A stretch of DNA of 64,000 nt from a virus (lineage: Duplodnaviria; Caudoviricetes). Location of the stretch: the IMG/VR virus record IMGVR_UViG_3300021255_000136, positions 17,434 through 81,433 of that record. The stretch is one strand, 5' to 3'. Below, piece after piece: positions 3,091-61,978 of the stretch. The notes beneath the pieces were generated by a model that had not been told where the DNA came from, did not search any database, and worked only from the letters and a program-made list of their open reading frames with translations. A program made the translations under genes and the position numbers. The stretch's first letter is position 1. Each line of letters starts with the position of its first letter.

Positions 3091-3442
3091 GTTCAGCGGT
3101 AAGTGTGATCTGTATGATTGGTTTGGCATGATCGCCTGTGAACCTGGGGAGACTCCGTTCGAATGTTACAAGCGTTTAGGCTCAGAGATTTTTTATTCAT
3201 ATGGTGGGGATGATCGTCCTGTTCGAATTGAGAAGCCCTCCGATCTGGTTATGTTCTATCCGTTTATTGCTGGCGCACACATCTATTCAAAGGACGGGGA
3301 TGATATACACTGGATATCTAAGGGGAGTTATCTTGCAGACATTTGTATGTATGCTCCTGCTACAGCAGCCAGGTACTTACAGGATCTTCTGGATGAGTAC
3401 TGGAGGGTAAGAGATGCCGAAGACCCGAAGTACACAGGATGA
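3083..3442 (+). CDS. hypothetical phage protein
   Basis: GGAG RBS; translationally coupled 119-aa ORF (MSKFSGKCDLYD...). Confidence 0.7.
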   Translation: MSKFSGKCDLYDWFGMIACEPGETPFECYKRLGSEIFYSYGGDDRPVRIEKPSDLVMFYPFIAGAHIYSKDGDDIHWISKGSYLADICMYAPATAARYLQDLLDEYWRVRDAEDPKYTG

Positions 3443-10526: not shown

Positions 10527-10903
10527 GCATGACAAAGGAAGAACTGTTAGCCTACCCGGAACGCGAAATGGATGAAGTACTTCACAATGTCACTGGAGTA
10601 TGGGTGATTCCAGCACAGCAACAGCATGAAAGTGGTTGGGGATGCATGAGTTTTCTAGCTACATTCAAGGATAAAGGAAAAAAGCCTGTACGTTTTGGTG
10701 GTGGATGTGACGATGTGATGTTCGAAGGAGATAAATTCAGAATGGATTGTGATTACCCAAGTGGAATAATTCATATCTGGAGTAATAAGCCGTTCTCCAT
10801 AACTTCGGATGTTTCGTCTATCAGTTTCATCGACGAGGAAATATACAGGAGATCTACAGGAGGTATTAATGAAGACATTACAGCCCTGCCCTGGTTGTGG
10901 TAG
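10523..10903 (+). CDS. hypothetical protein
   Basis: GGAGG RBS; 126 aa. Confidence 0.65.
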   Translation: MSMTKEELLAYPEREMDEVLHNVTGVWVIPAQQQHESGWGCMSFLATFKDKGKKPVRFGGGCDDVMFEGDKFRMDCDYPSGIIHIWSNKPFSITSDVSSISFIDEEIYRRSTGGINEDITALPWLW

Positions 10904-17300: not shown

Positions 17301-20300
17301 TCAGTACGTTGCCAATAGGTCCGGATGTACTCTTGAACCGGTTCAGTGCCATAGCGAAGGTGTTCAGCTCATGGTAGGTATCACGCTGGGCCTGCATCGT
17401 CGCGTACTGTCTGGCCTTGTTTAGCATCTCTCTGCCTTCTCTGGTGTTGAAGATCGTCGGTTCTTCAGAGTTCTCTTCGCCTACTTCCATAGCCTTCAGG
17501 AGATCTTCTTCAGATACGCCCTGAGCCTGTAGTGCTTCTGCCAGTGCTCTGACATAGTAGCGCTTCTGGAATGCGAAGTCAGATTTCTCCAGGAACTCGC
17601 CATTCTTCTTCGACAGTTTGTCAAGTGGAGCCCAGCCGAAGATGTCGCGCTTGTTCAGGATATCACTGATGTCGTTGAACTTGTTGCCAGTACGCTTGCC
17701 TGCTACGACGTCTTGCATAGTTGCGTAGTCGCGCTGTGCAAACCGGACATAGGTGTTGTCGGACTCTTTGCCAAACAAGCCTACCCAACCGGTAAGTTCA
17801 GCACCGGGTACGTGCATCTTGTACTCGGGGTCAATAATGCCGGGGATCTGTTCAAGACGTCGCAGGATAAGATCTTTCATGAACACTGCGGGCATGAAAG
17901 CTGCATTACCAACGAAGTTCCTTATGTGGGTTCTCGGATTGCCTAGCATCGCCAGATATCTCCAAGCGTTCCACTTATCCATGATCGTTGCGGGGATCTG
18001 GTCAGCAATATCTTTCTTGATCAGTTCCATGATATCGCTGATCTCCTGACGGCTTGTTGCGGCCATCAGTCTCTCTGCCAGTTCCTGGTTCAGAGTGATA
18101 CGCTGCATCTTGTTCTTCGGGTTTTCTATCCTCTTTGCATACGTTGCATTCAGGTGGTTGATAACACCGTTGATGTAGTAGAGCTGGCCTTGCGGTGTCG
18201 CCTTCTTAATAATCGACATCGCCTGTACAGCCTGACCTAAGTTGGTACCCAGGATAGACAGATCGGCTGCTACCTTGACTGCCTTATCATAGGTGTTAGG
18301 ATCAGAGCTGAATTCCTGGATGAGGAGTTCTGCCAGTGCGATCCACTCAGCTCTCGGCAGTTCACCACTCTCGACCATTGCGCTGAATGTGTTCATTGCC
18401 TGATCGAAGTTGCCGTTGAAGCGATTTGAAAGAATGCTACGCGCCAGTCGGATAGACCTTGCGTTGGACTGAGGGGTATATCCCAGCAGCTCATTTGTCA
18501 TACCTTCATACAGCATGCGCTCGGTGAGGTGTTCGTTCTCGACGTTTGCCGCTACGGTCTGCATGTGCTTCCGCACAGCGGTGTTGTCAGCGGACTTCTT
18601 CGGGAGATGTACATCATCCTTCTTGTCGCCTCTACCTTTCGGGAGCTTGCCGTACTTCTTTATAGCGGAGTCGATTGCTTTGTGGAGTTGTTCCTTCTTC
18701 TCCTCGGTCAGGTCGTCGGCGTAGTCAACTACACCCTTCAACCGTTCAAAGCTGTCGGCCAGAGCCTGTGGTCCGTTCCGGTTGACATACTCGTTAACGA
18801 TGTCCTCCAGCTTGAACGGGTCGTTCTGGTTGGCGTTGAGCAGGTAGTTGTACTCGAAGGAGTTGATCGGGAACGTGTCCAGTGTGGTGATCTGCTGGCC
18901 GCTAGCGTTGCGGAAAGTGAAGGTCTGGTCTCCTGTTGCGTTCTCCCTCATCGGGTTCTCGAAGCCAACGGAGAATTGTTTGCTTACACCTTCCTGCGCT
19001 TCACTCTGCGGTTGACTCTGTTCATACAGTTCTCCATTGTCTCCTGTGCGTCGAGATGTTCCTTCTTGATCCTGCGCAGGAACTTCTTCCGTTCCTCGTC
19101 GTAAGCCAGCATCCTGTTCACGGAGACGATATCCAGTATCGACATCCCGATTTGCAGGAGGTATTGTATAAGGTTGCGTTGTGGTTCGGTCAGTACTGTT
19201 GGCATTGTTCATCGCCTCCAAATAATTGATGTATTGTGCTTCGGGGGAATCTCCTCCTACGTTCTCCATGACCACCGTCTCACCAGAGTCGAGCTGGTAG
19301 TATGCGGTATCGTCGGAGTAGTACAGGTTCGGAGAAAGTTCGGACTGAGTAAGGTCTGTTGGGTTGGTGTTGGAGATTTCAACTTCATCGCCGAATGCGT
19401 CGTAGGCAGCATTGGGGTCGATGGAGAGGGAATAGCTACCAGCAACCCCCCAGGAATTTACGGTATTGAAAATTGCGTCTCTGGAGTACTTCGGCGCATT
19501 TCTCCGCCTACGTTCGGCTCCCCATTCCAATCTGCTTTGAACATCTCTGGCCTCGATTTCTCCGGCTGTATTCCTATAGAGATCGTAGTCGGAGTCATTT
19601 TTGTGAGACCGGTTCCTGCTCTGGGAAAGATCGTAGTTACTCAAGAAGTCTGCTACTTCGCCGAGACCATACTCGCCTATCGCCCACAGGAGCTCTTTCT
19701 GATAGTCCTCGCGCTTTTTCTCATAGTATAGCTGGCCATTCTTCTGGAAATCCTGCAGCGTCAGATGAAGCATTTCGTTGCGGGTTTCTGCCATAGCATA
19801 GAGCCGATTCAAGCCATCTGCTGGGATGTACAGTTTCATGGCTTCTAAGGCTTTCTTTGCACGGTCCTTCGGTGTGTACGGCACTCGTTTCCCGTTTACG
19901 TCGATCTGGTCGTCCCAGGCTTCGAGATTTGAACCGCTCGCAAATCCTTCCATATACTGGATAGCGTGCTGTATTTCATGCATCAATGTACTGCGTACGT
20001 CTCTCTCGGCCTCTGATAAATACCCGACGAGGTCATCAAGAGCAATTGTGATCGTGAAGCTGGAGGGATCAAATTCGCCGCGTACATTACTCGGCATTTC
20101 TGTGAAAACAACGGTATAGTTTTTAAGGTCAGGATAGTTAGCAAATAACATCCCGGCGTTTCTTAAAACTTCTGGGAGCTTATACTCGGACCTGTAGTTT
20201 TCTGCGTTACCAAGAGAACTTTGTATAGCCGCGTTCCATTCCTGATCAAGTACAGCAGGACGTATGGTAAAGTCCTTATCATAGATCTCCCACTTCCATT

Positions 20301-26300: not shown

Positions 26301-29300
26301 CGGAGAAGTTAAGCATCTGGCCCTGCGGAATAATGTATCCGCCGTGACGATAGTTAGAGGTGATACCGAACGTTCTGATCGATGCCATCTCTACCTTGCG
26401 CTCGTCTTCTGTAGCGTTCTCGTACCAGTCCTGAGCAGAGGAGATGCTGAACCGGAAGTCAGGATCATTGGTCGGGTTTTTGTTGTCCGGGTCCTTGAAC
26501 TGGTTGGACTCGAAGCCGACAACAATCGTGGCGAGCGTTCCGTCCAGAGTACCATCGTCTTTGCCACCTACATCTTCAATGTTTCGGAAGATAACGCCGT
26601 CATAGCCATGAGCATGTGCCCAGTTTACAACGCCGTTAGTGGTCATAGTTCCCGGTATGTCTTCTCTAAACAGGAAATTCTCCTGCTGCTTCGGGTTTCC
26701 TATTCTCTCCAGATATGCCCGGATGCCGTCCTTATCGGAGAGTCTACTCCATATTCCGCCTTCAGCGTCATAGATATACGGATTCTTCAGATTCGCGTAT
26801 AACGGTCTGTTGCCTCTGGTTGTGAAGTCCTCTACCGTCGGCGGTGCAAATTGTTGTGCCAGTTCGATTGCGTCTTCTCTGGACACCATCTCGCCATCGA
26901 ATTCGAATACGGACTCGTTATTCTCATAGGCGTCATACAGTTCGTCGTAGAGGTATTCAAAGTTATCGAGTTCTTCCTCGAGCTGGTTCATGATCTTGTC
27001 TATGAACCTCTTCAGCGATGGCGCGATTTCTGCAATCTCCGGAAGATGATCCCGTGCAATCTTAGCCTGCTCGATAACACCTTCGAAATAGTTATCGGCA
27101 TCACCAGCCGCCGCCTCCATAAGATTCCGTATCCTTTGCGCTGCGTTTAGGAAATCCTTAGAATACGGGGCCAAAGCCATTAGTGTATCGAGACTGTGTG
27201 CGAGAGTATACAGGTTCTCTACATTGTCATACAGTTCGTTCTCGACAAATACTCGACCATAGCCGTCACTGTACCCGGTCTCTTCCTCTGCCCTCTTAGC
27301 AAGGAAGTCGCCCAGCTCGTTGTCGTCCATTTCCTCTATACCCGGTACCTCAGTCATCTCACGCATGGGGTTAACCTCACGCATGGTACCTGAGTAAGAT
27401 CCGGCTATACGAGGATCGTCCACCGCAAAGAAGCTCAGATGGTCTGCCGCCCACTGCGGGTCGAAGATGTTCTGGGTGGCGTGTGTAATAGATCCGTGCC
27501 ACAGCTTCAGCAACCGGCCCAGATTATCTCTGACTCTGGAGCCTTTGAAGTACTCCAGCTGACCTCTGGACAAGCTGGCACCTTGGTTGTCCTCAGCTAC
27601 ATTATCGCCGTCCATAGTTACCGGCTGGCTAAGACTGTACTGCTTGCCCTTCACGAAATCACTGTAGTCCTGCGTCTGGGCTGCTTCGGATGTAGCGTAT
27701 TCTACCAGCTTGTTGTCCAGCTCGAACTTCTGGGCTAGGCGCTGGTATGTCGGCATATCGGACTGAATAAGCGAGACACCATGCATCCACGACATTCTAT
27801 CTATGCCATTTACTAGATCGGCGTACATCTCGTTGAGGACGGCCTGCTCGAATTCCTCTGGGGATTTATTGGCATAGGCGTCTTTGTAAAGGCCGCTATA
27901 ATAGTCGTAGAGCCGGTCGAACAGGGATTTCTTTCCTTTGAAGATTGCTCCTATCGCCTTCTTCAAATACTTAGACCGTTCAGCGTCGTTGAGCTTCTTG
28001 AGCATCTCGTGGGATATCTCGTGGTGCGCATTCTTAATATCCCTGTTGACGTTAATGATCATGGTATCCATGCCGTGATTATTAAAGACCACGCCATCAA
28101 ACGGAGTTCTATTTATTACCTTTCCGTTCTCGTCACGGATCAAGCTGTATAGACCATCCGCGTCAACAAAAAAGACCCGTTCTACGCCAGCGCTTTGTGC
28201 GCGGCGTACAGCAGATCTCTCCTCATTAGTAAGTACGGACTCGTCATCCGAGAAGGAATCGTAGACAACGAAGCCGTGGTTATATTCTATTGTATCTCTC
28301 TTCTTCTCGCCTGACAGGTCGAGAAGAGTTGCGTTTACTCGTCGTCCCCGAAGATCTCGTCCATCAGAGCTTTCTTCCGCCCCTGATATTCCTTCTCCTC
28401 CTCCGCTGTTCTGGGCTTCGGATTCAGCGGATCCCACTTGCCCTGCTGATACAGTTCCAGCTGCTCCTGAGTCATCGGGATTGACGCTCCGTTCGGCAGG
28501 CGTACTATCATTCGGTCGAATATCATTATCTGTTCCTCCATGTCTGGATTGTAGTGTTGCAAGGTCTTCCTGTGCTGCAGCTAACTTACGCTCCACTTCC
28601 TGCAGACGTTCAGCGTTGCCTTTGGGATCATTATATATCCTGTCACGCTCTGATGTCAAGCTAGCTATTTCACGCTGTGTGGACTCGACAGTAGCGCCGA
28701 CATTAGGCACACGGAACGGTTGAGGTGCTGTCTGGGTCTTAGGCGCGGATTTCTTCGACGTGGATTTCTTGGGCTCGCTTTTTGTGCTCTTCGCCTTCTC
28801 TGCAGTCTTGTTCGACGCGGTACGGTCTGGTTTGGTAACGGTGATTCCGTACTCCACTTCCATTGTGCCAAATGTATCGTTGGCTGCACGGTCCATCATC
28901 ATATCGAACTGGAGATGCGCCTCTTCTGCGGATTTGCCCTTCGACACCTCGCTCTCGACAAACTCACGACGTGTCTTCCACGGGAATGACGGATTGAGAC
29001 GTACCTTATCCTCCCAGCTTCTGGGATGGACTTCTCTGGCCCCGAGCTTCTTCTCCAGCTCCTCATCGAGGTTCTTTACCTTCTGCTCTTTGGGGTTCTT
29101 CGGCTTCTCTGTGGTATCCGCCTTGTCGCCCTTCTTCACGACTGCAGCGCCAGTGTCAGTACCCTCAGTCTTGGCCACCCAGTTTATAGCTGCGTTCTGT
29201 CCTGCGCCGTCGAGGATAAGTTTAAATTCTTTCGCCGCTACGTCCAGAGTAACATTAGAGTTCTGAGCGTGGCGCATATTATAATAAGAGTAGACATTGT

Positions 29301-61135: not shown

Positions 61136-61978
61136 ATGACAAAAGCAAAGAAGAATGTCAAGAGACTTACGAAAAAAGATATCTATGCAAAGCACGGAAT
61201 CGAATTCGACAACAAGACCGGAAAAATCAAGGCTCCCCTTTACGGATGGATTAGTCCCCTGCTGATTAACGGAAACGCCAAAATCGGGAAAGGCGTCTGG
61301 CAATATTCCTCCCTTCCCACAAATGAAACTTTCCGCATTGACATTAACGGCACGACAGTCGAATGCAAAGGAACTTGCGCATGCCATTGTGACGGATGCT
61401 ATGCCACAAAAGGATGCTACAATTTCCATAGCACAAAGGTATCCCTCTTGCGGAAAACCTTCTTACAGAGATTGTACAGCAATTTTGTAAAGCGGGCAAT
61501 CATAGCTCAGATTGAAGCTGACAAGATTAAGCTTTGCAGAATCCATGTCGCCGGAGATTTCGATCCTAGCAATCCGAACTACATTCCAATGTGGCATGAG
61601 ATTGTAGAAACCTGCACCAAGACATTGTTCTGGACATATACCAAGGTAGCTGAAGCAGAACATGCATTTAATGATCTTCCTAACATTAACGTAGTGCATT
61701 CCATCATAGAGGGATACGGCTTCAACTTTGGGCATTGTGATTACATCATACGCTTGTATCACACCCTTGTGGCAATGGGCAAGACAGTACACATCTGCAG
61801 ATGCGGAATTGACGACAATCAGCACTGTGTCAATTGCAAAGGATGTGCGACAAATGCATACGTCCTTTTCCTTGAACACAGCACAAACTACGTAGCAAAA
61901 GACGATCCCCTCTTTCCGGAAGTCGTCAAGCTGATCGAGTCGCAGGAATCTATGACGAAGGATTTACTGGCAGCATGA
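61136..61978 (+). CDS. Gp88-like protein with a CxxxCxxC motif
   Basis: CACHCDGCYA, RIHVAGDF and FWTYTK motifs typical of the mycobacteriophage gene-product-88 family. Confidence 0.65.
   Translation: MTKAKKNVKRLTKKDIYAKHGIEFDNKTGKIKAPLYGWISPLLINGNAKIGKGVWQYSSLPTNETFRIDINGTTVECKGTCACHCDGCYATKGCYNFHSTKVSLLRKTFLQRLYSNFVKRAIIAQIEADKIKLCRIHVAGDFDPSNPNYIPMWHEIVETCTKTLFWTYTKVAEAEHAFNDLPNINVVHSIIEGYGFNFGHCDYIIRLYHTLVAMGKTVHICRCGIDDNQHCVNCKGCATNAYVLFLEHSTNYVAKDDPLFPEVVKLIESQESMTKDLLAA

Follow-up and report, generated by a model that had tools for sequence, protein, structure and literature searches.

A small gene nested in the +1 frame of a giant polyvalent-protein gene of a phage, with a predicted partner for its product

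The DNA considered here is a window of 64,000 nucleotides (positions 17,434 to 81,433) of the IMG/VR record IMGVR_UViG_3300021255_000136, the complete genome, 81,433 bp long with direct terminal repeats, of an uncultured phage; positions given below are those of the window unless a contig is named. Its minus strand carries a single open reading frame (ORF) of 7,763 codons (14320-37611), about 29% of the 81.4-kb genome, with the genes for terminase, portal, tail fibres and an endolysin-like protein lying upstream of it on the same strand. The product is a polyvalent protein, that is, a very large multi-module phage protein with an LPD-type domain; LPD23 (E 4.9e-18) is the sole Pfam match of its 7,763 amino acids (aa), most of which are without any Pfam family match. 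Wholly within this gene, on the same strand and in a different frame, lies a second complete ORF. Read in the +1 frame of the giant ORF, it starts with an ATG at 28526, continues for 63 sense codons and ends in a TAA at 28337-28335 (thus 28335-28526, minus strand), and it is preceded, with an 8-nt spacer, by the Shine-Dalgarno (SD) sequence GGAGG (28535-28539, minus strand). This is exactly the arrangement, and the same peptide, that a first-pass annotation of the window had described from the sequence.

Over the dual-coding stretch as a whole (28335-28541, minus strand) the giant frame, from about aa 3024 to aa 3093, reads as a low-complexity linker rich in Gly, Ser, Glu and Arg, which that annotation had likewise placed just upstream of a HEISH motif. 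The linker joins two conserved modules of the giant protein, both of which can be aligned with the products of homologous giant genes on two other contigs, L002 and L003. The upstream module (giant aa 2864-3023; 28542-29022, minus strand) closes with a helical '...DLAxLQxR' segment that directly precedes the start codon of the nested ORF. The downstream module (giant aa 3094-3330; 27622-28332, minus strand) contains the HEISH motif, at 28023-28009.

In length alone the nested ORF is within what chance would give, since it ranks only 12th among the 20 ATG-initiated ORFs of at least 50 aa in the giant gene's +1 frame, where open runs longer than it, of 89-142 codons, also occur. The pairing of a GGAGG with a start codon tells more. 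There are 12 GGAGG sequences on the 23.3-kb sense strand of the giant gene, two of them with an out-of-frame ATG 4-10 nt further on, and both of these sites head ORFs of at least 60 aa: the one at 28526 and a second nested gene, described below, at 19205. When the codons of the giant gene were shuffled, two or more such sites appeared in 7 of 300 shuffles. Alternative starts for the ORF at 28526 were ruled out: an ATG at 28541 overlaps the SD sequence itself, and a TTG at 28562, which would give a 75-aa ORF, is disfavored by the family alignment and the SD sequence, both of which fit the ATG at 28526. What decides the matter is the comparative evidence.

When 1.84 billion representative proteins were searched exhaustively by phmmer, with the 63-aa product as query, four matches proved true, all of them to small proteins: P0004 (139 aa; 56% identity, E 1.6e-10), P0005 (63 aa), P0008 (61 aa) and P0009 (51 aa). 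Three other matches, P0003, P0006 and P0007, are tandem-repeat proteins that matched short pieces, and were discarded. A profile search added P0010 (62 aa), whose gene adjoins that of a tandem paralogue (L005:6286-6492, plus strand). The seven sequences share the pattern M-x-H-Y-x-V-x-L-P-N-G-x3-P-M-x-E-E-x-L-E-x-Y-x2-G-x-W-D-P followed by a variable acidic helix, and residues M, L, G, M, L, Y, G, W, D and P are invariant in their alignment; P0004 has in addition an unrelated coiled-coil extension at its C-terminus. AlphaFold2, given the family alignment, predicts for the 63-aa product a beta-hairpin (residues 6-9 and 15-18) and two helices, a short one (residues 20-28) associated with the invariant W-D-P motif and an acidic one at the C-terminus (residues 41-59), with a mean predicted local distance difference test score (pLDDT) of 75; no structural neighbor of this model was found. 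Lacking Cys, a lipobox and a hydrophobic signal sequence, the product is not an Rz1-like o-spanin; nor is it TnpV, as no family member matched the Pfam TnpV model at E up to 10. The family is a previously undescribed one.

Of its known copies three are nested and three or four are free-standing, so that both the homologues and the stand-alone copies for which the first-pass annotation had suggested a search do exist. P0005 and P0008 are each encoded in the +1 frame of a much longer ORF, the former on L002 (693-7877; 2,394 codons) and the latter on L003 (1212-6881; 1,889 codons). The giant proteins of these two contigs are homologous to that of the window right across the nested site (window aa 2864-3282; 29% identity, E 3e-32), and LPD23 is also present in both of the homologous giant ORFs. 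Because the three giant genes are homologous across the site, the nesting was inherited from a common ancestor and kept while the flanks diverged to the present identity of about 29-36%. The nested ORF is complete in all three, with SD sequence, ATG and stop; the gain of stops in the +1 frame or the loss of its ribosome-binding site among relatives, which the annotation had named as the signs of a spurious gene, is seen in neither L002 nor L003. In every copy whose DNA was read (window, L002, L003, L004 and L005) a purine-rich SD sequence lies 5-8 nt before the ATG, as GGGGGAG in L002 and AAGGAG in L003, L004 and L005, and the residues that the giant frame encodes at this site vary from one giant gene to another (GG, GR and RS).

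Among the free-standing copies, P0004 is encoded between opposite-strand genes on a bacterial genome contig with primase, sigma-factor-like and helix-turn-helix genes, according to its gene table. L005:6001-6189 (P0010) and L005:6286-6492 are tandem paralogues, 59-63% identical over the first 41-44 residues, and sit among the small genes of an element with an integrase, ParA, an Arc-like repressor and an excisionase-like gene; uncharacterised proteins of 562 and 371 aa come after the two copies. L004 is a 522-bp metagenome contig (1-522) that over 150 nt agrees almost exactly with the first L005 copy, apart from a handful of single-base changes, and then diverges fully, and that is either a rearranged variant or a chimeric assembly; a synonymous GAT-to-GAC change relative to the L005 copy removes one of the stops in its other frame.

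Where DNA codes in two frames, the choice of codons is limited by both, and a codon alignment of the three giant genes carries that mark precisely over the nested ORF. The third position of the giant frame is the most variable one in the flanks, with differences of 0.66 upstream, where the conserved module thus has an ordinary coding signature, and 0.70 downstream; over the nested stretch it is the least variable of the three codon positions, at 0.37. Over the 30 codons of the small protein's conserved N-terminal part the value drops to 0.23-0.24; flank columns drawn at random did not go so low in any of 100,000 sets, nor did any contiguous window of the flanks, the lowest of which was at 0.62. 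Redrawing the synonymous codons of the giant frame left a mean identity of 17% in the +1 frame, against 47-59% observed (0 of 5,000 redraws reached the observed value), and redrawing those of the small frame left 22-25% in the giant frame, against 39-48% observed (reached by at most 70 of 20,000). The conservation of neither frame is therefore a by-product of the other.

The distribution of stops agrees with this. The giant frame is free of them in all three nested copies, with 4.3-7.6 expected under synonymous redrawing (P 0.0001-0.005 each; for the window copy, 4.4 expected and none present, P 0.005), and the corresponding frame of the two free-standing L005 copies has 2 and 3. To judge from these comparisons, selection maintains both frames over about 190 nt and the nested ORF at 28526-28335 (minus strand) is a real protein-coding gene. 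The same-strand overlapping gene proposed in the first-pass annotation is thus borne out by the retention of ORF, SD sequence, ATG and stop in two other giant genes at low flank identity and by the existence of free-standing homologues.

As a control of specificity, the giant gene was found to contain 105 alternative-frame open runs of at least 35 codons, 22 of them in segments homologous to L002 or L003; only the ORF at 28526 and the second nested gene are conserved in the alternative frame, and the same two have a GGAGG-N4-10-ATG. This second gene (18984-19219, minus strand), likewise in the +1 frame of the giant gene, consists of a GGAGG, 9 nt, an ATG at 19205 and 73 codons. Its ORF is present at 77% identity and in the same SD context on L002 (at about 10664-10885, in the +1 frame of that contig's second giant ORF). 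Across giant aa 6164-6203 the giant frame's third-position differences drop to 0.00, from 0.6-0.8, and its first positions still differ at 0.30-0.37. No PHROG match and no significant Pfam match was obtained for its product (one at E 0.05 is below the cut-off). The second nested gene is a separate finding that corroborates the case at 28526.

In the history of the overlap the small gene is probably the older reading, through which the giant ORF would later have come to read; the giant 'linker' would then be the small gene translated out of frame and purged of its stops. This order of events is drawn from seven short sequences, and the reasons for it are that independent genes of the family exist, that the linker resembles an out-of-frame reading of the small gene (that of a free-standing copy yields text rich in Gly, Ser, Arg and Thr, of the same kind), that among the copies checked at DNA level the nested ones alone are free of stops in the other frame, and that the giant gene is split elsewhere in relatives. 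In the homologous region the large ORFs of L002 (693-12192) encode 754, 2,394 and 2,510 aa and those of L003 (1212-12186) 879, 1,889 and 5,047 aa, consecutive ones overlapping at their ends by a few codons; on this comparison, fusion and fission of polyvalent genes occur within the lineage. All of this accords with a further suggestion of the annotation, that an ancestral small gene had been grown through by read-through fusion.

The small gene lies directly 5' of the region for the downstream module, and it is with this module that its product may be connected. The H, E and H of HEISH are invariant in the three homologues and fall in a helix (residues 99-111) of the module model, which matches the zincin fold weakly (VIA-align Z 3.8-4.8, against lethal-factor-like, PPEP-3 and PprI chains); we regard the module as a putative zincin-like peptidase. 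Co-folding the 63-aa protein with giant aa 3094-3330, on shallow alignments of 3 and 7 rows, gave an interface score (ipSAE), which is the model's own confidence, of 0.87 (runs at 0.89, 0.87 and 0.87), against 0.25 for the best control; the pass mark is one that 58 of 80 solved complexes reached and 2 of 110 mismatched pairs. The co-folding with an adjacent domain that the annotation had advised thus gave a clear positive for the HEISH module. Between runs, at least 94% of the contacts are shared, and the partner has a pLDDT of 87 or more. The best-defined contacts join residues 6-9 of the small protein to residues 76-84 of the module, as a strand added to an edge strand, and further contacts are made with module residues 97, 101, 104, 105 and 108, which belong to the HExxH helix. 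In zincin peptidases, substrates and substrate-like inhibitors bind by strand addition next to the motif helix, and for this reason the predicted pose would fit an inhibitor, a pro-peptide-like chaperone or an obligate subunit.

The mechanism that these predictions suggest has steps of unequal strength. Ribosomes would, very probably, start internally at the conserved SD sequence and ATG on the giant mRNA and so make a separate 63-aa protein. On the strength of the co-fold, the odds seem about even that this protein would bind the HEISH module, with its N-terminal strand joining the edge strand and the HExxH helix covered; to judge by complexes encoded in operons, the position of the small gene just 5' of the region for its predicted partner would favor assembly on the same mRNA. 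More tentatively, the 63-aa protein might, within the cell that makes it, hold the putative embedded peptidase in a folded or inactive state, a restraint that would last until the giant protein was packaged or delivered without it. The annotation's idea of a chaperone or inhibitor of a neighboring toxic module is therefore a possible one: the co-fold with the adjacent module speaks for it, and the free-standing copies, which in the DNA available have no such module nearby, speak against it.

The alternative that best survives also takes the nested gene to be real, and makes its product a small regulator or a host-directed protein (e.g. for counter-defence) which does not act on the HExxH module and was placed beside it by fusion. 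It fits well with the free-standing homologues, which occur in regions of mobile elements where the available DNA contains no HExxH module, and with the unrelated coiled-coil extension borne by P0004; moreover, the three giant genes share one inherited arrangement, so that the adjacency of small gene and module is not independent evidence of a partnership. We consider this explanation a serious contender, if one that falls short of even odds, since the co-fold with the HExxH module passed clearly, with a mark that few mismatched pairs attain, and since its contacts are on the motif helix and edge strand.

Several of our own results weigh against a nested gene whose product partners the neighboring module. 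The family is small: it comprises seven sequences, of which two are near-identical, and no more than three copies are nested, representing one evolutionary event kept in three lineages. The conserved domain of the small protein matched nothing in Pfam, PHROGs, PADLOC, PDB sequences, the ESM Atlas or Foldseek that would hint at a function; the function searches matched only coiled coils, in the C-terminal extension of P0004. The downstream module, for its part, has no Pfam hit, no PDB sequence hit and nothing in Foldseek at E up to 0.001, and its fold matches to zincins are weak, so that it is no more than a putative peptidase; the alignments behind the co-fold are as shallow as noted above. 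Finally, no HExxH module was found near the free-standing copies in the DNA available, which would mean that a dedicated partnership is not general in the family. With these points taken into account, we put the probability of the reading as a whole at roughly 0.8, its separate steps being graded as above.

Two further explanations leave less room for a nested gene inside a translated giant one. According to the first, only the small frame is translated, and the 'giant ORF' is a pair of genes flanking the small gene that merely happen to have no stop between them; the giant coding region is indeed split into several ORFs at other places in relatives, and its text over the overlap is of low complexity, like an out-of-frame reading. 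This we hold to be improbable, because three lineages keep the giant frame clear of stops over a stretch in which 4-8 would be expected (P 0.0001-0.005 each), while the L005 copies do have stops, because giant-frame identity is above what the small frame imposes, and because beyond the stop of the small gene there is no conserved start codon at which a separate downstream gene could begin. According to the second, which we rate marginally lower still, the locus is a conserved RNA structure, a recombination or regulatory site, or a frameshift signal, in which last case the +1 reading would be the C-terminal extension of a truncated upstream product. An RNA element would likewise suppress synonymous variation, and internal SD-like sequences can stimulate frameshifting, as they do in prfB and dnaX. 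Against it, the free-standing homologues begin with Met at the same alignment position, conservation is at the level of amino acids with stops in the other frame of the copies checked, and the window, L002 and L003 share no slippery or stop-codon shift site between SD sequence and ATG. That a functionless chance ORF has fallen behind a chance GGAGG, as its middling length and the longer open runs in the same frame might suggest, is the least probable explanation of all and is already refuted as far as sequence comparison can refute it, by homologues to E 1.6e-10, by the conserved SD sequence, ATG and stop, and by the 0 of 5,000 redraws.

Further members of the family were sought in several ways. 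Profile searches of viral and genome contigs for related loci found none, nor did a degenerate DNA pattern built on the invariant residues in the same contigs, or tblastn against plasmids. Two tblastn matches were dismissed as chance: a single one among phages, at E 0.9, and one within the window at 61475-61627 (E 0.002), which lies in frame within a 280-aa Cys-rich protein. Searches by way of the giant frame, with blastn against phages and, in viral and metagenome contigs, with a 433-aa segment and with the giant-protein alignment, revealed no relatives either. Because nested ORFs are rarely called as genes, protein databases under-sample them. The public gene calls for L002 and L003 list the nested small ORFs together with short antisense ORFs and omit the enclosing ORFs of 2,394 and 1,889 codons; both loci appear to have been mis-resolved by automatic gene calling.

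A word-indexed protein search with giant residues 2880-3380 returned only the giant protein itself and a motif of about 29 aa shared with P0002, an unrelated 3,670-aa polyvalent protein. This motif, D-x-x-G-x-S-L-S-x-x-Q-x-x-[FY]-F-x-x-S-x-V-x-D-x-x-G-x-L, lies at about 27505-27590 (minus strand; giant aa ~3341-3369) and is repeated at least 5 times in residues 1093-2196 of P0002. It may be a module-boundary or processing motif.

To our knowledge, few long same-strand overlapping genes in bacteria and phages come with comparative proof of dual coding. The best-known parallel in form is the Rz/Rz1 pair of lambda, in which a larger gene encloses, on the same strand and in its +1 frame, a small gene with a separate start, and the two products form a complex (PMC6139136); embedded genes of this kind, among the spanins, are routinely missed by gene callers (PMC6139136). 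The nested gene at 28526 is likewise a complete small gene in the +1 frame of the same strand with a start of its own, the complex in this case being a predicted one. It differs from Rz/Rz1 in that its host is a 23-kb polyvalent-protein gene and not a lysis gene, in that the 63-aa protein has no Cys, lipobox or signal peptide, and, with respect to the embedded spanin families of the survey in PMC6139136, in that its family has both nested and free-standing members. A second parallel is comS of Bacillus subtilis, a small gene in a distinct frame of srfAB that is expressed from the large gene's transcript (PMC12915044). There, too, a small gene occupies a distinct frame inside a very large multi-module gene; ComS, however, regulates competence and is not known to bind surfactin synthetase, whereas the product described here is predicted to bind the adjoining module, and the host gene here is from a phage, the families being unrelated.

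The giant protein itself resembles the polyvalent proteins of phages and conjugative elements, for which embedded peptidases have been proposed to release domains (Iyer et al. 2017, PMC5512222): it, too, belongs to a mobile element, is giant and built of many modules, and has LPD23 and an embedded HExxH module. In the text of that paper (PMC5512222) the word 'overlapping' does not occur, and 'nested', 'embedded' and 'reading frame' are never used of an out-of-frame gene inside a polyvalent gene.

The locus makes the likely direction of such an event visible, the free-standing relatives of the small gene indicating that the linker of the giant protein is probably the derived reading, and so points to one route by which giant multi-module genes may be assembled. 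It also adds a family of small proteins with a testable predicted partner, and it shows that genes within polyvalent ORFs are overlooked, or wrongly resolved, by standard gene calling. A broader proposition, which we regard for now as rather unlikely, is that polyvalent giant genes grow by reading through small genes, and that those of the small genes which survive encode dedicated partners, produced at the same place on the mRNA, that hold a neighboring enzymatic module folded or inactive until delivery. The nested gene at 28526 would then supply the HEISH module with its inhibitor or chaperone, and the second nested gene would do so for a different module. If true, the proposition would mean a general, unannotated layer of regulation in the 'weapon' proteins of phages and conjugative elements.

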